A DNA stretch of 64,000 nucleotides from Octopus sinensis (lineage: Eukaryota): positions 65,906,001-65,970,000 of the forward strand of contig NC_043004.1 in NCBI RefSeq assembly GCF_006345805.1. Direction: 5' to 3'. The notes under the pieces are model-generated. The model did no database searches. It was given only the letters and a program-made list of their open reading frames with translations, and was not told the origin of the DNA. The position numbers and the translations under genes were made by a program. Shown here one piece after another: positions 13,624 through 57,661 of this stretch; positions within the stretch are counted from its first letter, which is position 1; every line of letters starts with the position of its first letter.

Positions 13624-16209
13624 TATTGTTATATTTCGGAATGGTCATTTTGCCAGTTTAGCCAATAAAAACACACGCACTATATATTTGGTGTTATTTA
13701 TATTTTACAGTAACCTTAATCTTATTTCGGCCAGAGTTCTTTCGTCACACTCCTGTGACCGCATCAGTGGTCCTTTGTTTTCTTCTTTCTTATTTGTGTC
13801 TCTCCTTACTAACAGTCAGCCATTTTGTATTTCTATTGTATGTCTTCATTTGCGCATGCTTATATCTCTATGTGCGTCTATGTTTAGTTAGTGTGTGTGT
13901 TGGGGGGATGCCTGTAATATTTGTATCTTCTGTTTATATACGTTCGTGTAATTTGTTTTCGTTGTAGATTTTGTTCATTCTTAATTTGTTCATGTGTTTA
14001 GATCCACTTATTATTATCATTACTTATGCTTGTATGTATGTATGTATGTATCTATGTATAACAACAATACTAGTAATAAAAATAATAAATAAAAAAACAA
14101 AACTTGAAAAAAAACTTATGTAGTTATTTATTTCTATTTGTTTATTTATCTGTGTATTTTATTTATCATGTTTTCGGTTTTGTTTATATTGTAACCAGTT
14201 TATGGGGATCCTCTACCGTCATATGTTGTGGTGTGTGCTAGTGTTCCATTCCAGTTTCCTATTCAGGCTAGGTTTATTTTCTATTATGTGTGTAGCTTCT
14301 GTAATTTGTCTGATTGTTGCATCTGTTCTATGTGTGGAGAAGATTTTAACTTCTATGTTGTTGATTGATCTCCTATGTTCCTGTTCGGCGTGTTGGTACA
14401 GAATCGATCAGCTTTTACCTTCTTTAAGTTCTCTCCAATGTACATTTACCCGCTCTCCTATGCTTCGTGTAGTTTCCCTACGTATGTCATTGTCTTGTTA
14501 CTGCATCGTCCCTCTATACATCTTATACTATAGACTACATAGTGGTAAAGGCACCCCCCAAGAGAGTAATGTTGATATAGTAATAGAAACTAATACTATG
14601 GAAATCATCCAGCAAATAGCTAACTCCGTCCACCAGAGTATTAAGGTCACAATAGACTACCCCTCTAAACACCCCAACCATAGACTACCAGTACTAGACA
14701 CAGAACTCTGGCTAGAAACTGTGAATAATAAAACCCAAATCTTTCATTCGTACTATGCCAAACCTATGGCCTCAAAATACTTGTTCCACCGGATCTCAGC
14801 CATTGCGGACAGTGCCAAATTCAATATTTTGATGGCAGACCTCGTCAGAATAATGAGAAATGTGTCACGCATGTGCGAGCCTACAGAGTTAAAGAGACAC
14901 GTACAATATTTCATTCACCGCATGCAGCTCTCAGGTTACAGCCATAAAGAAAGGATCAGAGTATACAAAGGAGCCATGAAGAAATTTGATAATATATTAT
15001 GTAATGAGAGGAATGAGATTTGCCCCCCACTCTATAGGAACAAGTCATGGAACACTATAGAAAGGACAAAGAAGAAAATAGGGAAGGCCAACTCTTGGTA
15101 TGATAGCCATAAATACCAGAGTGTCATGTTCGTTGACACCATTCCTGGAGGTGAACTGGCGTACCGCTTTAGAATGACCCAAGACAAACTTACCCTTTTA
15201 GTAGAACCCCCTGTACGGATAGGTACTGTACTGTGTGTAGATTTAGCCCACAAACAAACTGTAAAGCCAGAAATCTAGTCTATAATATAAGATGTATAGA
15301 GGGACGATGCAGTAACAAGACAACGACATACGTAGGGAAACTGCACGAAGCATAGGAGAGCGGGTAAATGACATTGGAGAGAACTTAAGGAAGGTAAAAG
15401 TTGATCGATTCTGTACCAACACGCCGAACAGGAACACGGGGGATCAATCTACAACATAGAAGTTAAAATCTTGTCCACACATAGAACAGATGCAAAAATC
15501 AGACAAATTACAGAAGCTACACACATAATAGAAGATAAACCTAGCCTGAATAGGAAACTGGAATGGAACACTAGCACACACCACAACATATGACGGTAGA
15601 GGATCCCCATAAACTGGTTACAATATAAACAAAACCGAAAACATAATAAATAAAATACACAGATAAATAAACAAATAGAAATATATAACTATATAAGTTG
15701 TTTTTTTAATTTAAAAGATTTTTTTATTTATTATTATTATTATTACTAGTATTGTTGTTATACATACATACATACATACATACATACAAGCATAAGTAAT
15801 GATAATAATAAGTGGATCTAACACATGAACAAAATAAGAATAAACAAAATCTACAGCAAAAACAAATTACACGAACGTATATAAACAGAAGATACAAATA
15901 TTACAGGCATCCCCCCACACACACACTAACTAAACATAGACGCACACAGAGATATAAGCATGCGCAAATGAAGACATACAATAGAAATACAAAATGGCTG
16001 ACGGTTAGTAAGGAGAGACACAAATAAGAAAGAAGAAAGCAAAGGACCACTGATGCGGTCACAGGAGTGTGACGAAAGAACTCTGGCTGAAATAACATTA
16101 AGATTAATGTAAAAGATAAATAACACTGAAGCAAAATAACACCAAATATATAGTGCGTATATTTTTAATGGCTAAACTGGCAAAATGACCATTCCGAAAT
16201 ATAATAATA
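13624..16209 (+). mobile_element. 5'-truncated Penelope-like element with ~0.9 kb inverted duplication (arms 13624-14537 and 15276-16209)
   Basis: 14538-15200 encodes an RT thumb (LPVLDTELW..YYAKPMAS..RMQLSGYS). After a frameshift come PCTDRYCTVC..CKARNLVYNIRC..TYVGETARSIGER (Zn linker plus GIY-YIG). The arms are near-identical reverse complements. Confidence 0.9.
16048..16087 (+). ncRNA. Hammerhead-like motif in the PLE 3' region (mirror copy ~13730-13770 on the minus strand)
   Basis: cca-CTGATGCG-GTCACA ggag TGTGAC-GAAA-GAAC-TC-tgg. The core deviates from CUGANGA. Confidence 0.45.
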
Positions 16210-17939: not shown

Positions 17940-18803
17940 TTGAAACGTACGTTCTCAAATAACCTTTGCATTTGATTTTTTAATGTCTTTACCCCCATAC
18001 TTTCGTGAGTTGAATTGAGCAAACACTATATGAGAGAGGTTTTCTTTAAGTATTAGAAATAGTTTTAAAAAAGTTTTTTTAGCTACTATTTCTAATGAGT
18101 TCAGTATGCGGCAAAGTAATTTATTTTACTAAGCCCTTTTATATAATGTAACAATTTGAATTTGCCTTAAATGGTCCCTTTGCATACTGAATACTTGGTG
18201 AAATTGATTAATAATTAATTAATTTTACCCTCAATTGTTGAAATTATAATTCATCTCTCTCTATTTAATGCCTCGGATTTTACCGAAAAAAGCATAGTGT
18301 TTACTGATTTTAACCCACGCTGGTGGAAAGGGGAGAGCAGAAATTCTTCGCTTGCATATTTGAGTTTGCTGGCACTGTTACTTTCGAGCAGATCTTCAGA
18401 AGCGATAAGAAGCCGAAAGGGTATGCTCCCACTTTCAGTGTTTTCAAATCCAAACCAAGGAGTTCTGAGCTGATGATAGAAATGTCGAGTTGACTAATCT
18501 TGAAACGTACGTTCTCAAATAACCTTTGCATTTGATTTTTAATGTCTTTACCCCCATACTTTCGTGAGTTGAATTGAGCAAACACTATATGAGAGAGGTT
18601 TTCTTTAAGTATTAGAAATAGTTTTAAAAAAGTTTTTTTAGCTACTATTTCTAATGAGTTCAGTATGCGGCAAAGTAATTTATTTTACTAAGCCCTTTTA
18701 TATAATGTAATAATTTGAATTTGCCTTAAATGGTCCCTTTGCATACTGAATACTTGGTGAAATTGATTAATAATTAATTAATTTTACCCTCAATTGTTGA
18801 AAT
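17940..18803 (+). mobile_element. Non-coding 560-bp unit inserted as a 1.54-mer, with hammerhead and 17-bp TSD
   Basis: 17941-18245 is repeated at 18501-18805. The flanking direct repeat tatatatgattatctat is at 17923-17939 and 18804-18820. Confidence 0.85.
18466..18517 (+). ncRNA. Type I minimal hammerhead ribozyme
   Basis: tgag-CTGATGA-[taga..gtc gagtt gac..tctt]-GAAA-CGTAC-GTT-ctca. Palindromic ACGTACGT helix III; predicted cut after 18513. Confidence 0.7.
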
Positions 18804-18846
18804 TATATATGATTATCTATATTTATACACGCATGCGTATACATAA

Positions 18847-19631: not shown

Positions 19632-19688
<57 letters not shown>

Positions 19689-19698
19689 TATATATATA

Positions 19699-19743
<45 letters not shown>

Positions 19744-19947
19744 GTGAAATAGAAAGATGAATAATCTTGTAGTAGATTAATCAAAAGTTTAACCGATACC
19801 TAGTAGCAAAAATCACAGCAGTAAACAGCACGGTTGGAGGTACAACCATATGGTGTTGCAACCGTTCGTTGGTGCGGAAATTGAAATTAAAATATTATTG
19901 GTGAATTGAAGAAATGGAGCTGAACGCAGATTGAACAGAAATCGTTT

Positions 19948-30329: not shown

Positions 30330-30541
30330 GCCATGATAGATCGTTAGCCAGTACACACATTTTTTTCTTTCCTTGATTCTCTACTATTTTTTTCTCTCCT
30401 TGTTTCTTTCTGTGTCCCTTTCTGTAGAAGAGCGTAGGATCGAAACATAAAATACTTTTTCTATTCCTGAGTGTTATACTAATACATCTGTTTGTTTTGT
30501 ACACCACCCGTCTTTGTCTTTTGTTTTTTTCGTAAACTCTC

Positions 30542-30545
<4 letters not shown>
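30330..30545 (+). mobile_element. Solo 3' end of the 34570-36490 PLE family
   Basis: ccatgatagatcgtt..ctttctgtagaagagcgtaggatcgaaacataaaa..gttatactaatacat..cgtaaact followed by (TA)n. Confidence 0.75.
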
Positions 30546-30581
<36 letters not shown>

Positions 30582-30600
30582 TATATATATATATATATAT

Positions 30601-30684
<84 letters not shown>

Positions 30685-31085
30685 GTGGTGTGTGTGTGTG
30701 TGTATGTTAGAAGAAATAAGGTATTCAGAAATCTGGATGGTTTTATATTTACAGATTTTTTTTTAATACGTCACATGTTTATATATATTATATATAGAAA
30801 TATGTTACAAAAAGAAAATAGAGACTACATGTGGAAATTGGAAATGTAAGAGGGAAAAAGCAGAAATGCACATTGGAAATAAAAAAAATGTAAAGGATTC
30901 TTATGAAAAGTAGCGATAGATATATACAATTAGACGAACTGAGGTAGGAATAAAACATTATAAAAGTCTTTATTTTGAATTGTTAAAGAGATATAAATGC
31001 CTACCGGTCTCGTAAATTTATATATATATATGTGTGTGTGTGTGGTGTGGGTGTGTGTGTATGTGTGTGTGTGTGTGTTTGTCTG

Positions 31086-32663: not shown

Positions 32664-32708
32664 GCTAGAGATAAAAATGTGTACATATATATATATATGT
32701 ATGTGTGT

Positions 32709-33246
32709 AAATATTCTATAATTATAAACATAATTATAATTATGGGTCACCTAAATGCTTCATCAACATACCGAATTTAGAAATAGGAGTTAAAAATTCT
32801 TTTTCTACTCCTGTAAGAATCTCCACGAGAGAAACACACATTTTTACATAGGCAAAGATAAAACAATGAATCAATGCGATACTGATTAGCTACATGCGCG
32901 TTTCAAGGTTAAAGTCTTATAAATTACTTCTCTTTTCAGTGTAGCATTTCCAATTATAAAATTTGAAAGTGCCAGGGCTAAATATTCCCACGATCGAGCG
33001 ACATCGTGCAACAGATTTCCACCCAACTCTTCCAAAATGTGCACAGCTGAATGTGAATACACTATTCATCCCTTGTTCCCGCGTGTATGTTACGAGAAGT
33101 ACTGCAGAAATTTGCAGTATTCTATCATGGAGTAAATTATAATTTCAAATTAATAATAAAAGGGTAAAATTAATCAATTTAATTAATTGATAACTTTACC
33201 TTTATAGGTAAAATCATACAAATATTCTATAATTATAAACATAATT
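32709..33246 (-). mobile_element. 511-bp unit plus 38-nt overlap, relative of the 600-bp array unit, with mutated hammerhead at 32889-32945
   Basis: aaatattctataattataaacataatt at 32709 and 33220. Shares cataccgaatttagaaatag with the array. Minus strand reads gctaca-CTGAAAA-..-GAAACGCGCA-tgtagc. Confidence 0.7.
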
Positions 33247-34484: not shown

Positions 34485-34547
<63 letters not shown>

Positions 34548-34569
34548 TCATACATATATATAAATAAAT

Positions 34570-36490
34570 AACTACATCTATAGACTCCTTCCTCGACAGC
34601 ATTCCTCGACAGCATTCATCACTCCACTTTTACCACCTCCATTCACTACAAACACAGACTCACACTCATACCTAAACTTATCTTCGTCCCACTCCAAATA
34701 CACCAGGCTTTAAATCCCCTATTCCCAATTCCTCCGTCTACGTAGGCTCTGTAGTGACGACTATGACTTTGAGACTCAGTCTCAACTCATGGCTCGCCAC
34801 TTCATCCTACGTGGATACCCCCTCACCACTATCCACACTGCCTTTGCCAGAGCACGTTCCGTAGACCATGCATCTGCTCTCTTTCCCCCGAACCAGCCCT
34901 GCAGTCTCCCGCCTCCCTTTTCCCCTCACTTACCACCCCACCACCCTACCTCTCCCATGCACCATTCTTCGAGCTTTGTGGCATCTCCAGTCCGACCCGT
35001 CAACTTCACACCTCTTCCCTAACCGACCCCTCCTCTCCTTCAAACGAACCCATAACCTACGAGACCTCTTGGTCCACAGCTTCTTCCCCAACCCTACCTC
35101 CCAACGTGGCTCATTCCCCTGCTCCCGCCCACACTGCCGCACTTGCCCTTACCTCTCCAACACCACCCTCCTTACTGGCACCCATCATCGACCCTATCGC
35201 ATCATCGACTCCGTCACCTGCACCTCCAGCAATATCATCTATTGCATCACCTGCTCTCTCTGCCTTTCCCTGTACATCGGACAAACGGGAGGCCGCTTGG
35301 TTGACCGGTTTGCGGAACACCTCCGAGACATCCGCCTCGCCAATGACTCTCCAGTCTCACGCCATTTCCGCTCCAACGGTCACTCCTTGCAACACCTGTG
35401 TGTGTTCGGATTGTCCTTGCACAGAAGCCATCTGGATACACGCTTGTGCCGTGAACAGGGATTAATCTTCTCTCTTCGCTCTTTTACGCCATTTGGGCTC
35501 AACTCTCCCCTCTTTTCATCTAGCCTACTTATCTTCACTCCTACATATTTTCACCGCTACTCTCTTTCCCTTCTTTCTCTTCTTCCCCCTTCTTCCCTGT
35601 TCTCCCTCTTCCCTTTCTCTCTTTCTCTCTGCTCCCTCACTCCGCATCTCTCCCTTCACCTCTCCCACCACCTCCCTCCACCTTCCTTCATCCTCCTCTA
35701 TCTCCTTCCCACCCCTCCCCCTCTCACCCACTCCTCTCATCTCTCTCTTCCTCCTCTTTCCTCCTCCACCCTCTCACCACTTCCTCTCATCTCCCTCCTC
35801 CTCCTCTTTCCTCATCGCCCTCTCTCCCCTCCTATCCCTCTCTCCCCTCCTATCCCCCCTCCTCACCTCCCACTCTACTCCACCCTTCCCCCACTCTATC
35901 CAACCCCTTCCCCCACTCTACCAAAACCCCGAGCTGAATCCCCACCCCCACCTGTGCTTTCCCCACTCTCGCATTCCCCACCTCCCCACAACATCACAAC
36001 ACACCCCACAGCACGCCGGCCACACACCCATCCCCACATCTTTACCCCCACACAAACATACACATATCACATCACAACACAATACCCACACACCCGTCCC
36101 CACATCTCCACACCCACACATACATACACCCACACGTCCAGACCACCAGCCCTCTTTCGCACGCACTTACATACTCTCTTATACACACACGCACCTTTCT
36201 GTAGGGGGCATCTTCGTATTGGAAGTCACTTGTCCCTGTTATCTCCCCTACTGTCCCTCTCGCGTCTGACCACTGTCTGAAGTTAGGATGCCATGATAGA
36301 TCGTTGCTCCTACACGCATTTTTCTCTCTCCTTGTTCCTCTCCTTGTTTTTTTTCTCTGTATCCTTCTGTCGATGAGCGTAGGCTCGAAACGTAAAAGAC
36401 TTTTCTATTCCTGAACGTTATACTAATACATGTGTTTGTTTGTACTCCACCTGCCTTCGTCTTTTGTTTATGTTCGTAAACTTTCCCGTT
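34570..36490 (+). mobile_element. 5'-truncated Penelope-like (Neptune-like) element: RT thumb, Zn linker, GIY-YIG, C/T-rich 3' region
   Basis: TDSHSYL..IPYSQFLRLRRLCSD..RGYP; NLRDLLVHS..CSRPHCRTC..TCTSSNIIYCITCSLCLSLYIGQTGGRLVDRFAEH, with frameshifts. The 3' end has CTGTCGAT-GAGC gtag GCTC-GAAACGTA (36367-36394), then (TA)n. Confidence 0.92.
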
Positions 36491-41354: not shown

Positions 41355-41570
41355 TGTGTGGTACGTAGCTTGCTTCCCAACCACATGGTTCCAGGTTCAG
41401 TCCCACTGCGTGGCAGCTTGGGCAAGTGTCTTCTGCTATAGCTTCAGCCGGACCGAAGTGTATTTGGTAGCGGAAATTGAAAGAAGCTATATTCCTGAGC
41501 GTTATACTAATACATCTGTTTGTTTTGTACGTCACCTGTCTTCGTCTGTTTTTTTCGTAAACTTTCTCGA
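41355..41570 (+). mobile_element. SINE family A 5' part joined to a PLE 3'-end fragment
   Basis: 41355-41487 matches 63470-63610; 41488-41570 matches 36405-36485. Confidence 0.7.
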
Positions 41571-41634: not shown

Positions 41635-41834
41635 CATATATATATATGTATGTGGTATGTGTGTGGTATGGTATGTATATAAATATATATATATATATAT
41701 GGTGGTGATTTTAGTCTCAGCAACTTACCTGTTCGAGAAAAGGAGACGATAGAATAAGTACTAGGCTTCCAAAGTATAAAAATATATATACGCACACATA
41801 TACGTATAATGATATAGACATTAATGGTGATGAC

Positions 41835-41877
<43 letters not shown>

Positions 41878-41879
<2 letters not shown>

Positions 41880-42080
41880 TGTGAAATAGAAAGATGAATA
41901 AACTTGTAGCAGATTAATCAAAAGTTTAACCGATACCTTGGTAGCAAAAATCACAGCAGAAGACAGCACGGTTGGAGGTACAACCATATGGTGTTGCAAC
42001 CGTGCGTTGGTGCGGATAATTGAATTTTAATATTATTATTATTAATATTATTAATATTATATGTTTGTATCTTCACCAAT
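41878..42080 (-). mobile_element. Terminal-repeat fragment of the 19741-21257 PLE family
   Basis: Nearly identical to 19741-19890; bounded by (TA)n. Confidence 0.8.
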
Positions 42081-42090
42081 AATATATATA

Positions 42091-42129
<39 letters not shown>

Positions 42130-42413
42130 CGTAATAATGAAGGGTGAAATTAATTAATTTGGAAAAATTATCAATTACACCAAGTAGTCTTCGGCATGTA
42201 AAAGCCTCATTCGAGGAAAATTTAAGTAATACTAAGCAATAAGGGTTTAGCAACGAGTTGCCTTACCACATACCGAATTTAGAAATAGCAGTCAAAGGGT
42301 TATAGCTATTTCTTCTACTAAAAAGGGAGATCTCAGTAAAAACAGCATTTGGAAGGCACAAACAGGTAAGAGAGAATGAATTGACTGCAATCTATCATAC
42401 ATTTTTTTAGTTA

Positions 42414-42527
42414 TCCACGGACGTACGTTTCGAAATCAAGTTTTAAGGAAAACATACGAATTAAATATTAAATATTAAATAATAAATAATTCTATCTTAC
42501 CGAAACTTCTTTTCTCTTCAGCGTAAA
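42414..42527 (-). ncRNA. Type I hammerhead ribozyme, unit 1 (repeats every ~599 bp through unit 7)
   Basis: Plus strand tccacg-GACGTACG-TTTC-gaaatcaagttt...aaacttcttttc-TCTTCAG-cgta is the reverse complement of the motif at 47084-47195. Confidence 0.85.
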
Positions 42528-45500
42528 TACTATAATCATAAATGATTATATATTGAATTTTGAGATACCAGAAGGCACCAACTCCACTCAGTATCAGAGC
42601 GAGCTAGAACCCGCAACTGGTATCACCGAATTCATTTGTGAATGAAACGATTGTGTCAACAGCCCCTCCCACCCGCGTGTAGCCAAAACAAATGATGCTG
42701 TGGTCATCTACTGAGATAAAATATGGTTATCCGTATAATGAAGGGTGAAATTAATTAATTTGGAAAAATTATCATTACACCAATAGTCTTCGGCATTAAA
42801 AGCCTCATTCGAGGAAAATTTAAGTAATACTAAGCAATAAGGGTTTAGCAACGAGTTGCCTTACCACATACCGAATTTAGAAATAGCAGTCAAAGGTTAT
42901 AGCTATTTCTTCTACTAAAAAGGGAGATCTCAGTAAAAACAGCATTTGGAAGGCACAAACAGGTAAGAGAGAATGAATTGACTGCAATCTATCATACATT
43001 TTTTTAGTTATCCACGGACGTACGTTTCGAAATCAAGTTTTAAGGAAGCATACGATTTAAATATTAAATATAAATAATAAATAATTCTATCTTACCGAAA
43101 CTTCTTTTCTCTTCAGCGTAGAATACTATAATCATAAATGATTATATATTGAATTTTGAGATACCAGAAGGCACCAACTCCACTGAGTATCAGAGCGAGC
43201 TAGAACCCGCAACTGGTATCACCGAATTCAATTTGTGAATGAAACGATTGTGTCAACAGCCCCTTCCCACCCGCGTGTAGCCAAAACAAGATGCTGTGGT
43301 CATCTACTGAGATAAAATATGGTTATCCGTAATAATGAAGGGTGAAATTAATTAATTTGCAAAAATTATCAATTACACCAAGTAGCCTTCGGCATGTAAA
43401 AGCCTCATTCGAGGGAAATTTAAGTAATACTAAGCAATAAGGGTTTAGCAACGAGTTGCCTTACCACATACCGAATTTAGAAATAGCAGTCAAAGGGTTA
43501 TAGCTATTTCTTCTACTAAAAAGGGAGATCTCAGTAAAAACAGCATTTGGAAGGCACAAACAGGTAAGAGAGAATGAATTGACTGCAATCTATCATACAT
43601 TTTTTTAGTTATCCACGGACGTACGTTTCGAAATCAAGTTTTAAGGAAAGCATACGAATTAAATATTAAATATAAAATATAATAATTCTATCTTACCGAA
43701 ACTTCTTTTCTCTTCAGCGTAGAATACTATAATCATAAATGATTATATATTGAATTTTGAGATACCAGAAGGCACCAACTCCACTCAGTATCAGAGCGAG
43801 CTAGAACCCGCAACTGGTATCACCGAATTCAATTTGTGAATGAAACGATTGTGTCAACAGCCCCTTCCCACCCGCGTGTAGCCAAAACAAGATGCTGTGG
43901 TCATCTACTGAGATAAAATATGGTTATCCGTAATAATGAAGGGTGAAATTAATTAATTTGGAAAAATTATCAATTACACCAAGTAGTCTTCGGCATGTAA
44001 AAGCCTCATTCGAGGAAAATTTAAGTAATACTAAGCAATAAGGGTTTAGCAACGAGTTGCCTTACCACATACCGAATTTAAATAGCAGTCAAAAGGTTAT
44101 AGCTATTTCTTCTACTAAAAAGGGAGATCTCAGTAAAAACAGCATTTGAAGGCACAAACAGGTAAGAGAGAATGAATTGACTGCAATCTATCATACATTT
44201 TTTTAGTTATCCACGGACGTACGTTTCGAAATCAATTTTTAAGGAAAGCATACGAATTAAATATTAAATATTAAATAATAAATAATTCTATCTTACCGAA
44301 ACTTCTTTTCTCTTCAGCGTAGAATAGTATAATCATAAATGATTATATATTGAATTTTGAGATACCAGAAGGCACCAACTCCACTCAGTATCAGAGCGAG
44401 CTAGAACCCGCAACTGGTATCACCGAATTCAATTTGTGAATGAAACGATTGTGTCAACAGCCCCTTCCCACCCGCGTGTAGCCAAAACAGATGCTGTGGT
44501 CATCTACTGAGATAAAATATGGTTATCCGTAATAATGAAGGGTGAAATTAATTAATTTGGAAAAATTATCAATTACACCAAGTAGTCTTCGGCATGTAAA
44601 CCTCATTCGAGGAAAATTTAAGTAATACTAAGCAATAAGGGTTAGCAACGAGTTGCCTTACCACATACCGAATTTAGAAATAGCAGTCAAGGGTTATAGC
44701 TATTTCTTCTACTAAAAAGGGAGATCTCAGTAAAAAGCATTTGGAAGGCACAAACAGGTAAGAGAATGAATTGACTGCAATCTATCATACATTTTTTTAG
44801 TTATCCACGGACGTACGTTTCGAAATCAAGTTTTAAGGAAAGCATACGAATTAAATATTAAATATTAAATAATAAAAATTCTATCTTACCGAAACTTCTT
44901 TTCTCTTCAGCGTAGAATACTATAATCATAAATGATTATATATTGAATTTTGAGATACCAGAAGGCACCAACTCCACTCATAATCACCGAGCGACTAGAA
45001 CCCGCAACTGGTATCACCGAATTCATTTGTGAATGAAACGATTGTGTCAACAGCCCCTTCCCACCCGCGTGTAGCCAAAACAAGATGCTGTGGTCATCTA
45101 CTGAGATAAAATATGGTTATCCGTATAATGAAGGGTGAAATTAATTAATTTGGAAAAATATCAATTACACCAAGTAGTCTTCGGCATGTAAAAGCCTCAT
45201 TCGAGGAAAATTTAAGTAATACTAAGCAATAAGGGTTTAGCAACGAGTTGCCTTACCACATACCGAATTTAGAAATAGCAGTCAAAGGGTTATAGCTATT
45301 TCTTCTACTAAAAAGGGAGATCTCAGTAAAAACAGCATTTGGAAGGCACAAACAGGTAAGAGAGAATGAATTGACTGCAATCTATCATACATTTTTTTAG
45401 TTATCCACGGACGTACGTTTTCAAATCAAGTTTTAAGGAAAGCATACGATTAAATATTAAATATTAAATAATAAATAATTCTATCTTACCGAAACTTCTT

Positions 45501-47083
45501 TTCTCTTCAGCGTAGAATACTATAATCATAAATGATTATATATTGAATTTTGAGATACCAGAAGGCACCAACTCCACTCAGTATCAGAGCGAGCTAGAAC
45601 CCGCAACTGGTATCACCGAATTCAATTTGTGAATGAAACGATTGTGTCAACAGCCCCTTCCCACCCGCGTGTAGCCAAAACAAGATGCTGTGGTCATCTA
45701 CTGAGATAAAATATGGTTATCCGTAATAATGAAGGGTGAAATTAATTAATTTGGAAAAAATATCAATTACACCAAGTAGTCTTCGGCATGTAAAAGCCTC
45801 ATTCGAGGAAAATTTAAGTATAATACTAAGCAATAAGGGTTTAGCAACGAGTTGCCTTACCACATACCGAATTTAGAAATAGCAGTCAAAGGGTTATAGC
45901 TATTTCTTCTACTAAAAAGGGAGATCTCAGTAAAAAGCATTTGGAAGGCAAAACAGGTAAGAGAGAATGAATTGACTGCAATCTATCATACATTTTTTTA
46001 GTTATCCACGGACGTACGTTTCGAAATCAAGTTTTAAGGAGCATACGAATTAAATATTAAATATTAAATAATAATAATTCTATCTTACCGAAACTTCTTT
46101 TCTCTTCAGCGTAGAATACTATAATCATAAATGATTATATATTGAATTTTGAGATACCAGAAGGCAACCAACTCCACTCAGTATCAGAGCGAGCTAGAAC
46201 CCGCAACTGGTATCACCGAATTCAATTTGTGAATGAAACGATTGTGTCAACAGTCCCTTCCCACCCGCGTGTAGCCAAAACAAGATGCTGTGGTCATCTA
46301 CTGAGATAAAATATGGTTATCCGTAATAACGCTACACGCGGGTGGGAAGGGGCTGTTGACACAATCGTTTCATTCACAAATTGAATTCGGTGATACCAGT
46401 TGCGGGTTCTAGCTCGCTCTGATACTGAGTGGAGTTGGTGCCTTCTGGTATCTCAAAATTCAATATATAATCATTTATGATTATAGTATTCTACGCTGAA
46501 GAGAAAAGAAGTTTCGGTAAGATAGATTATTTATTATTTAATATTTAATATTTAATTCGTATGCTTTCCTTAAAACTTGATTTGGAAACGTACGTCCGTG
46601 GATAACAAAAAAATGTATGATATATTGCAGTCAATTCATTCTCTCTTACCTGTTTGTGCCTTCCAAATGCTGTTTTTACTGAGATCTCCCTTTTTAGTAG
46701 AAGAAATAGCTATAACCCTTTGACTGCTATTTCTAAATTCGGTATGTGGTAAGGCAACTCGTTGCTAAACCTTATTGCTTAGTATTACTTAAATTTTCTC
46801 GAATGAGGCTTTTACATGCCGAAGACTACTTGGTGTAATTGATAATTTTTCAAATTAATTAATTTCACCCTCATTATTACGGAAACCATATTTTATTTCA
46901 GTAGATGACCACAGCATCTTGTTTTGGCTACACGCGGGTGGGAAGGGGCTGTTGACACAATCGTTTCATTCACAAATTGAATTCGGTGATACCAGTTGCG
47001 GGTTCTAGCTCGCTCTGATACTGAGTGGAGTTGGTGCCTTCTGGTATCTCAAAATTCAATATAATCATTTATGATTATAGTAT

Positions 47084-47195
47084 TCTACGCTGAAGAGAAA
47101 AGAAGTTTCGGTAAGATAGAATTATTTATTATTAATATTTAATATTTAATCGTATGCTTTCCTTAAAACTTGATTTCGAAACGTACGTCCGTGGA
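47084..47195 (+). ncRNA. Type I hammerhead ribozyme in an inverted unit (another at 46490-46602)
   Basis: tctacg-CTGAAGA-gaaa ag aagttt ...aaactt ga tttc-GAAA-CGTAC-GTC-cgtgga. 6-bp helix I, long helix II, palindromic ACGTACGT helix III; predicted cut after C47189. Confidence 0.88.
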
Positions 47196-47375
47196 TAACT
47201 AAAAAAATGTATGATAGATTGCAGTCAATTCATTCTCTCTTACCTGTTTGTGCCTTCCAAATGCTGTTTTTACTGAGATCTCCCTTTTTAGTAGAAGAAA
47301 TAGCTATAACCCTTTGACTGCTATTTCTAAATTCGGTATGTGGTAAGGCAACTCGTTGCTAACCCCTTATGCTTA

Positions 47376-47423
<48 letters not shown>

Positions 47424-47464
47424 ATATTTATACTTATTATGCAGATTATTTTTCAACACTCGTC

Positions 47465-48272: not shown

Positions 48273-49343
48273 TGTATATATATATATATATATATACATA
48301 GATACAAAGTGAGATAGGGGTTATGAGTGTAACCCACTATGGGATATCATTTATCCAATATACTGCCAGTGAAGTACCCAAAAGGCTAATACATAAATGC
48401 TTAGAATTGCAATGCAATTAGTTCATTTATTGTATTAGATGGGCGAAGGTAAAATGTTTTACCTCAAATTCATAATACAAAATAAGAAAATGGAGGAACA
48501 GATTCCTTAAAATCATCAACTTAAAGATAATACCAATTCATATAATTTATTAACTAATTAAATAGGAACATCCAAATCCAACAGAGATGATTGTAAGGAA
48601 TCTATTCCTTCATATTCTTATTTTATATACATAGATATATATCTATATATCTATGTATATATACATACATGCCGGCATACATTCATTCGCAATCGTAGTT
48701 ATCTATGTTTGTGTGAATGTGTAATTGTAATTTGGGAGAGATGTCACGCGTTTCACAAGCACGTAATGAGACGCGAAAGCAGACAGCCATTTAGAGGGAC
48801 AGAAAAACAACCAGACTGACAGACGCACGGACAGACTGACAGACCTATGGATAGATATACAGATAGATCGATAGTTTGTTATAAAGAAATAAAGAGAGAA
48901 AATTTGAACTCCTAGTAAGAGATAAATGGCTTTGATGAGAATTATTTCTGAATGTCTGTGTATTCGTATGTGTTCCATGTTCCATATTCTACATCGAATT
49001 AGAGGAATGTTTCTTTGGACCCCAAAGACCGCAAGAATTTTGCGTGGTGGTGGAGGATGCGGCATTTCTCGTATTCAGTGTATCTAATTTTTGCCATATT
49101 GTTTTTGCAACACCTGGTTCTTTGATGCATGTATCGATACTAACACACTTTACAAATCTTTGGTTTTACAGAATTTAAATAAATCATCAACAACAACTTG
49201 ACAAGTTGACACAGAACAATGATCAAATCATTACACGGTCATTCAACCGGAAAGAACTAACAGACGATTCCTTTTCTAATTATATTCTGGCATCTGAAAA
49301 CAGAATGCATACATCTACATACATATGTCTGCAAATTAAAATA

Positions 49344-57279: not shown

Positions 57280-57593
57280 ATAAAAGGGTAAAGGGAATTA
57301 ATTGATTAATCAATAAATTAATTAATAATTTTACCAAGTAGATCGGTACGTCAAAATAACCATTTTAGGTGAAATTACACAAATATTCTATAATTCTAAA
57401 CATAAATATAATTAGGGGTCAGCTAATTGCTTCACCTCATACAGAATTTAGAAACAGGAGTTAAAAATCTTTTTCTAGTAACGTAAGAATTTCGCGGTCA
57501 GTAATATACTGTCTTGTAACGTAAAAAAGTGTTACTGTCTGGGAGTTTTTTACGATATTAAGAAAGGAATTTTAACTCCTATTTCTAAATTCA

Positions 57594-57597
<4 letters not shown>
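57280..57597. mobile_element. Truncated fold-back copy of the 511/560/600-bp unit superfamily
   Basis: aagggtaaa..aattaatt..caaatattctataatt..gaatttagaaacaggagttaaaa, then the inverted ttttaactcctatttctaaattc. (TA)n flanks. Confidence 0.75.

Positions 57598-57661
<64 letters not shown>

Follow-up and report, generated by a model that had tools for sequence, protein, structure and literature searches.

A non-coding hammerhead repeat of Octopus sinensis with Penelope-like, two-armed insertions and a probable rolling-circle mode of retrotransposition

Animal retrozymes that lack long terminal repeats (non-LTR retrozymes) are non-coding tandem units of low GC content with one type I hammerhead ribozyme each, dispersed in genomes as monomers to multimers, and their mobility as circular RNAs served by Penelope-like proteins has been proposed (PMC7229834; bioRxiv 10.64898/2026.07.22.740005). 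Endonuclease-bearing Penelope-like elements (PLEs) start internally at two sites downstream of their hammerhead, which defines a tail (PMC11167929, PMC8557442, PMC3846280), and their insertions show an inverted 5'-truncated copy, the tail at one end, palindromic joints and AT-rich or (TA)n targets (PMC8557442, PMC3846280). In vitro, the protein of the anole PLE Poseidon nicks AT-rich DNA in both strands, extends each of them and starts at two sites inside the RNA (PMC11167929). Circular copying of retrozyme and Penelope-like RNAs has been proposed since 2014 (PMC4209133), and the origin of the inverted copy and tail of PLEs is still called open (PMC8557442). Here we analyse a family of hammerhead-bearing repeats, and in particular one of its arrays, found in a 64,000-nt stretch of the Octopus sinensis genome (contig NC_043004.1, positions 65,906,001 to 65,970,000; hereafter the window, with positions counted from its first letter). 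The family has sequence and insertion features of both groups: its insertions combine a tail with an inverted copy, which is the Penelope-like insertion signature, here on a non-LTR retrozyme. We consider this class assignment, together with a Penelope-type mode of insertion, very probable.

The array comprises 8.75 units of about 600 nt (the unit length of the family, family 1, is about 603 nt), which are 96.7-98.2% identical to a reference unit, and none of its stop-to-stop frames exceeds 69 aa, so that the array is non-coding, just as an earlier note made from the letters of the window alone had stated. Within the array we found neither a match to PLE proteins nor an open reading frame (ORF) combining a reverse transcriptase (RT) with a GIY-YIG domain, and it is thus not an autonomous PLE. 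The GC content of the unit lies below the 45-50% ceiling used for non-LTR retrozymes; derivation of the unit from a tRNA was considered and rejected, as it contains no tRNA gene. The same note had assigned an intact hammerhead to every unit, and this holds in part: nine motifs show the core, a helix I of 6 bp and a helix II domain measuring 81-83 nt, but only seven of them are canonical, and the defects of the copies at 46496 and 45510 may be assembly errors, judging from the indel-rich units. The view of the array as one tandem run proved wrong. It consists of 7.0 units on the minus strand placed head to head with 1.75 units on the plus strand, all inside (AT)n, with the 5' ends of the two arms meeting at the joint and their 3' ends facing (AT)n on either side. 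The mechanism can be read mostly from this inversion and from the two fixed start sites described below, both overlooked in the note.

The array is not a satellite confined to a single locus, a case that the earlier note had named as fatal to its proposal and that a genome search excludes. In the 2.72-Gb, microsatellite-rich host genome, a 31-nt stretch of the core has 1,122 exact matches (control 0), and 208 unit matches, those listed being 94-100% identical, were obtained from 40 of 684 candidates on many contigs. Junctions of one unit position (site A) with (AT)n yielded 1,033 exact genome matches (425 with a longer pattern), ends 4-11 nt beyond site A another 130 on the forward strand, and junctions of a second position (site B) with (AT)n 471 on the forward strand, each against 0 in the control. 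The family, which would total roughly 1,300 insertions, is dispersed and young (97-99% identity). We read 20 long arrays and 80 further site-A matches in list order. The first 21 loci are long, high-scoring arrays and hence a biased sample; counts called unbiased below refer to 86 of the 425 exact site-A matches, namely those of contigs C1 and C2 together with four from C3, a set in which subfamily 1a is covered best. Usable among these were 83, after dropping L070 and L114 (both two-armed, with an end beyond the DNA read) and L129 (a garbled unit).

Unit positions are counted along the reference unit (window 43330-43929, minus strand, in the hammerhead sense), those above 600 continuing into the next unit. 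The cut is predicted between positions 312 and 313; site A lies at 500-503 and site B at about 598-613, i.e. about 190 and 290 nt past the cleavage site and about 100 nt apart. The 83 usable A-selected insertions divide into 42 one-armed ones with a variable 5' end and 41 two-armed ones with an inverted arm, and in 39 of the latter the inverted arm ends at 598-613 (the other two at 509 and 513). When all 98 usable insertions are taken together, the end lies at 598-618, 95-115 nt beyond site A, in 49 of 51 inverted arms. Starting instead from the B ends, of which 48 were listed on contig C1, an inverted partner accompanies at least 35, and one insertion (L183) seems to have a single arm; these B-selected ends were read only as 19 stretches of 390 bases. 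Site-B junctions outnumber the prediction from a 50% two-arm rate, and inserts with arm B only may exist; a copy of the related family 2 in the window ends at the equivalent of site B without a second arm. The arm joints show a 1-3 nt overlap, i.e. microhomology, in 26 of 52 cases. The far flank is (AT)n in 40/41 two-arm and 29/42 single-arm inserts at the threshold used, and for this main family target duplications cannot be judged in pure (AT)n.

The 100-nt tail is absent from arm A in short inserts, and elsewhere arm A greatly exceeds arm B in length (2912 versus 231; 3547 versus 551). Copying of one arm from the other therefore cannot account for every insert, and this argues for two separate priming events. 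In the twin priming of L1, two target ends prime on one RNA, which leaves an inversion joined by microhomology. The second start in L1 comes after the first strand has stopped, whereas the octopus family has a fixed site for it and arms that can both be multimeric. As a separate observation, the inner ends of three multi-lap arms (arm B of the window array, L040 and L033) fall at 592-597, right at site B.

Taken together, we propose with a probability of roughly 0.68 that the insertions arise when a borrowed PLE protein, with twin target priming, reverse-transcribes a monomer circle in rolling-circle mode, and that the window array records a single such event, with 7.0 laps from site B and 1.75 from site A. 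The circular monomer as template, taken on its own, also seems reasonably probable. In this scheme a non-LTR retrozyme that is not autonomous would owe its mobility to the protein of a PLE with an endonuclease. An array would be transcribed in the hammerhead sense; adjacent hammerheads would pair via a palindromic helix III and cut out monomers, which a host ligase would close into 600-nt circles, as in known retrozymes. The borrowed protein would bind a conserved, structured domain of 200 nt and nick an (AT)n tract, the target actually observed. One target end would prime within the RNA at site A; in at least half of the events, the other would prime on the same template at site B, about 100 nt more 3', positions suggested by the fixed ends. 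Each polymerase would proceed around the presumed circle for 0 to 12 laps across the cleavage junction, crossings of which are seen in the arrays, and the two complementary DNA (cDNA) ends would join at 1-3 nt of microhomology, giving the head-to-head arms that we observe. The earlier suggestion of an RNA-derived, retrozyme-like concatemer with Penelope-type mobilisation is indeed supported by the dispersal, the fixed ends, the (AT)n targets, strand-specific folding and covariation.

The hammerhead motif has the core CUGANGA, GAAA and NUH with the G10.1-C11.1 pair, and it is complete in 178 of 197 full units across loci. Its helix III consists of two pairs with a palindromic loop, through which two copies are predicted to pair over 8 bp (-11.2 kcal/mol). 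Hammerheads with a palindromic helix III that act as dimers (PMC4209133) have the same core, G10.1-C11.1, 6-bp helix I and 2-bp helix III; the octopus motif differs in its very long helix II, in having no Rfam match and in being known from sequence alone. In the predicted fold of the isolated motif the core, helix I and the long helix II form, with a z score of merely -1.6; in the fold of the circular monomer, helices I and II reach pairing probabilities of 0.84-0.97, and helix III does not form in the predicted monomer. A motif search proposed in the earlier note was successful with a general hammerhead scan, which finds the hammerheads of the family, and failed with Rfam, no hammerhead model of which matched the window at the gathering score or positions 46330-47400 up to E 10, probably owing to the long helix II. 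Chance is not a plausible source of these motifs, given that the scan returned several hundred matches in real loci against 1 in base-shuffled loci, and given the exact genome matches of the core against none in the control. Covariation of the helices, likewise named as a check, is apparent by eye in relatives: subfamily 1b has U-A for U-G in helix I and a longer, perfect helix II, family 2 has two helix I pairs altered on both sides, and family 2b has a longer helix III with the palindrome retained. Over the 197 units, the core and helix I vary by 0.9% versus 2.4% elsewhere, the latter value being inflated by homopolymer errors. An A/G-rich internal loop of helix II is a candidate partner for a loop 1-loop 2 tertiary contact. 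In its tandem units with hammerheads, its lack of coding capacity, its low GC content, its dispersal and its unit length, the family agrees with the sequence features by which a non-LTR retrozyme is recognised.

A second conserved part of the unit, positions 415-610, is common to at least six related families in the DNA read. Three stems hold across 8 related sequences (95% of cells paired), with changes on both sides in 5 pairs and in 7 cells (shuffles as high in 16/500 and 0/500), values to be read with the caveat that the structure was derived from the same 8 sequences and that the statistics ignore relatedness. Site A is predicted to fall within a long loop of unpaired bases that is closed by the stem with the best support, and we regard the domain as a putative element for binding of the reverse transcriptase and initiation. 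Compared with shuffled sequences, the hammerhead strand has a much better fold as a linear molecule (z -6.0), and in circular form it reaches z -10.2 versus -2.8 for the other strand (25 shuffles). Good folding only in the hammerhead sense fixes the polarity of the template and argues against an antisense one.

The form of the template is the point at which the readings part. Unlikely, in our estimate, but the most serious competitor of the circle, is an uncut multimeric read-through transcript, copied after the same two-site priming, with the hammerhead weak or used at another step. One point in favour of the circle is where the arms stop. First-lap ends pile up at positions 378-432, the 3' foot of a long predicted RNA rod, and this zone, which was picked after inspection of the data, halts 27 of 79 A arms at the first meeting versus 3 of 47 later (p = 4e-4). 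On a circle already paired with cDNA the barriers would be gone after the first lap, whereas a linear multimer should present them anew in every unit. In addition, the inner ends of short two-arm inserts lie within 15 nt of each other in 22 of 25 cases (permutation mean 6.9, maximum 14 in 20,000), and outside the main stop zone they agree in 11 of 13 versus 3.0 expected by permutation. They could reflect the common 5' end of a broken RNA, as would suit an uncut transcript, yet such an end would couple long arms as well, and these agree in only 1 of 24. Also in favour of the circle, arms cross the predicted cut site 222 times.

Clonality of the arrays points the same way. Units differ by 0.39% within arrays versus 1.0% between arrays, both arms of two-arm arrays agree fully in 13 of 15, and the multi-unit arms of L046 and L115 have private variants in common. 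Variants present array-wide are biased on the hammerhead strand (A>G 13 versus T>C 2 of 26; private ones, n = 19, 10 versus 1), which single-unit variants are not (A>G 8 versus T>C 12, with the AT-rich loop and L070 left out). The pattern fits an edited monomer copied lap after lap, and a multimeric transcript would need a monomer bottleneck followed by multiplication to account for it. Contigs of four sequencing runs of uncertain type contain (AT)n junctions and are therefore no guide to transcription; a joint in them that goes back by 600 fits a tandem as well as a circle.

Besides the post hoc choice of the stop zone, a number of observations weigh against copying of a cleaved circle. Two other zones are not significant in the unbiased set (6/49 versus 1/44; 8/38 versus 4/41), the overall stop rate also drops after the first lap (1.73 versus 1.06 per kb), survivor bias may explain part of the lap-dependent stops, and the lack of inner-end coupling in long inserts counts here too. 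The A>G excess is small and was likewise noticed post hoc; in a stricter recount without L070, L129 and L086 it shrinks to 10 versus 3 of 24 (p 0.02), sites covered once giving 10 versus 8. The commonest haplotype occurs in 17 arrays, so that the agreement of arms has limited power, and mosaicism at an A/G site is seen in two arrays (5/11 units in L031, 5/8 in L041), which a single monomer does not predict and which an uncut transcript accommodates. The same transcript would be in line with the failure of 8 of 9 Xenopus retrozyme dimers to cleave (bioRxiv 10.64898/2026.07.22.740005) and with anole Poseidon, which in vitro had no need for hammerhead cleavage and took uncut RNA as its main substrate (PMC11167929). 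Finally, 13 of 149 inner ends fall at 317-337, just 3' of the predicted cut; these could be stalls at helix I or trimmed run-off from a cut linear RNA.

The latter ends are also what a second alternative would predict, namely that the polymerase copies a cut linear monomer and jumps from its 5' end to its 3' end at each lap. Chimeric joins in L054 and L075, which show template switching or nesting, would be in keeping with such jumps, and clonality is explained as well as by a circle. Of 197 units, however, 187 have an exact junction, its variation is lower than elsewhere in the unit (0.9% versus 2.4%), and none of the 149 inner ends lies at 310-316 (an absence that would suit an uncut template too). 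We therefore hold jumping to be improbable. Slightly less credit still goes to an origin at the DNA level, with short insertions expanded by unequal crossover or slippage and the inversion produced by self-priming fold-back, from an antisense template. Head-to-head palindromic joints of PLEs were indeed read as self-priming (PMC3846280), local tandem amplification has been proposed for retrozymes (bioRxiv 10.64898/2026.07.22.740005), and homogeneity of the units would follow as well; against this stand the common private variants of multi-unit arms in L046 and L115, the arms that cannot always be copies of each other, the youth of the family, and the stops, folding and A>G bias, all of which indicate the hammerhead strand as template. 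A fold-back artefact of long-read assembly, which units with many small indels and the garbled unit of L129 might bring to mind, is already contradicted by the separate fixed sites, 100 nt from each other, at which the two arms end, by their differing outer flanks, and by A and B junctions to (AT)n in contigs of the independent runs X1 and X3.

Rolling-circle copying of one monomer allows a more detailed, and for now tentative, reading that we rate as somewhat less than an even chance: every array would be the trace of a single Penelope-type protein complex at work on a single RNA circle. Its two polymerase sites would use both target strands for priming, at circle positions that are fixed and separated by 100 nt, the trailing polymerase would stop where the leader stalls on folded RNA during the first lap, later laps would run freely, and A-to-I edits on the single circle would pass into every unit. 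If true, this would provide genomic evidence for rolling-circle retrotransposition, explain the head-to-head and tail structures of PLEs, and give RNA editing a route to heritable sequence change.

As to the source of the borrowed protein, the genome contains intact RT and GIY-YIG frames of 775-781 aa that are likewise sited in (AT)n. They represent two PLE families, A (781 aa) and B (775 aa), which are 47% identical and, with a Zn-finger preceding GIY-YIG, are of the Neptune/Nematis type according to the published description (PMC8557442). A point against their partnership with the retrozyme is that 0 of 42 GIY-YIG loci (150 of 5,029 candidates scored) end in the 3' domain of the unit; neither blastn nor a 3'-domain profile gave a match between the unit and family A or B. 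The genome search called for in the earlier note thus recovered the dispersed copies and no linked PLE among the 42 loci. About 21 of 57 Xenopus retrozyme families match PLE ends (bioRxiv 10.64898/2026.07.22.740005), unlike the present family, for which no partner pseudo-LTR (pLTR) match was found in this set. Unit-like matches in L146 and L153 were rejected as PLE ends since they look like separate insertions (that of L146 lies across an (AT)n tract), and PLE remnants by the arrays of L083, L094 and L108 were likewise set aside, those of L094 and L108, where the intervening DNA was read, not being joined to the arrays. Copies of family A (L161-L165, L169, L170) are themselves young, 98-99% alike, with a further frame, up to 479 aa long, that precedes and overlaps the 781-aa one; L161 carries a 1.67-kb direct repeat with a hammerhead-like motif. 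The window itself has a 5'-truncated, frameshifted PLE between (AT)n tracts (34540-36490, plus strand), with remnants of the RT thumb and GIY-YIG that are 27-31% identical to families A and B and with a 3' end recurring at 30330-30690 and 41490-41570.

Compared with the described animal non-LTR retrozymes, the octopus family stands apart by its long helix II domain, two-armed head-to-head inserts, fixed starts and strict choice of (AT)n as target. Neither 'inverted' nor 'microsatellite' is used in the available text of PMC7229834, and that of the preprint (bioRxiv 10.64898/2026.07.22.740005) describes no two-armed architecture. The unit was at first thought unusually long, which cannot be upheld: it exceeds the 150-450 nt given in PMC7229834 but falls within the family consensus lengths of 51-972 bp in the preprint. 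Retrozymes of such size have already been described, and what stands out here are the two-armed inserts with paired fixed start sites. In contrast to endonuclease-bearing PLEs, there is no ORF, the tail measures about 100 nt versus their 30-40, and arms extend to 12 laps; and while Poseidon in vitro uses both sites alike on both strands, sites A and B here lie on opposite arms in 49 of 51 cases. The available text of a 2026 octopus repeat annotation (PMC13282606) lacks the words ribozyme and retrozyme, and we found no publication describing the present family or analysis, subscription papers and Repbase lying outside the search. More than 1,000 young, short, multi-lap insertions make the family valuable as a test system for the insertion mechanism, with lap-dependent stops, paired starts, coupled inner ends and clonal variants as countable tests, and read-through of inverted arms would yield kilobase-long double-stranded RNA.

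Table 1. Features of the array in the window (TRF, Tandem Repeats Finder).
Feature	Position	Strand	Remarks
Left (AT)n target tract	42082..42129		TRF, sequence
Arm B, 7.0 units	42130..46329	hammerhead sense on minus	outer end at site B (~601-607) by (AT)n; inner end 595
Type I hammerhead	42414..42527	-	C-to-T in helix I, G-U pair retained
Type I hammerhead	43011..43122	-	canonical
Type I hammerhead	43612..43723	-	canonical, in reference unit
Type I hammerhead	44210..44323	-	core canonical
Type I hammerhead	44804..44916	-	canonical
Type I hammerhead (copy at 45510)	45404..45516	-	disturbed C-GAAA
Type I hammerhead	46005..46115	-	canonical
Head-to-head arm joint	46329..46331		one additional base
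Arm A, 1.75 units	46331..47379	hammerhead sense on plus	inner end 48; outer end at site A (500-503)
Type I hammerhead (copy at 46496)	46490..46602	+	G for C11.1
Structured 3' domain, example (in every full unit)	46696..46881	+	three predicted stems; site A in long unpaired loop; site B just beyond last stem
Type I hammerhead	47084..47195	+	canonical; predicted cut after 47189
Right (AT)n target tract	47380..47432		TRF

Relatives of the family occur elsewhere in the window. The family 2 copy mentioned above (17940-18810, plus strand) comprises 1.55 units of 559 nt with a short-helix-II hammerhead of its own at 18471, in one arm flanked by a 17-nt target duplication. Two older relatives have the common 3' domain, one of unit length with a decayed hammerhead (32700-33240, minus strand) and the other a short two-arm insert (57280-57600). 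The arrays of L054 and L075 (both on contig C1 of genome G000) abut other small elements without an (AT)n spacer, the partner being family 2 in L054 and in L075 another family, a relative of which lies at 48475-48583 of the window; it is possible that in these chimeras the template was switched during a single insertion event. Type I hammerhead families abound in the genome, with at least eight more, unrelated ones in about 0.95 Mb of DNA (loci L031-L172) versus one match in shuffled sequence. Two further repeats of the window may be mentioned: a small one adjoining (AT)n, with copies at 19648-19899 and, directly upstream of the array, at 41775-42037 (87% alike), and a 940-nt inverted repeat of 93% identity (13624-14540 and 15273-16209).

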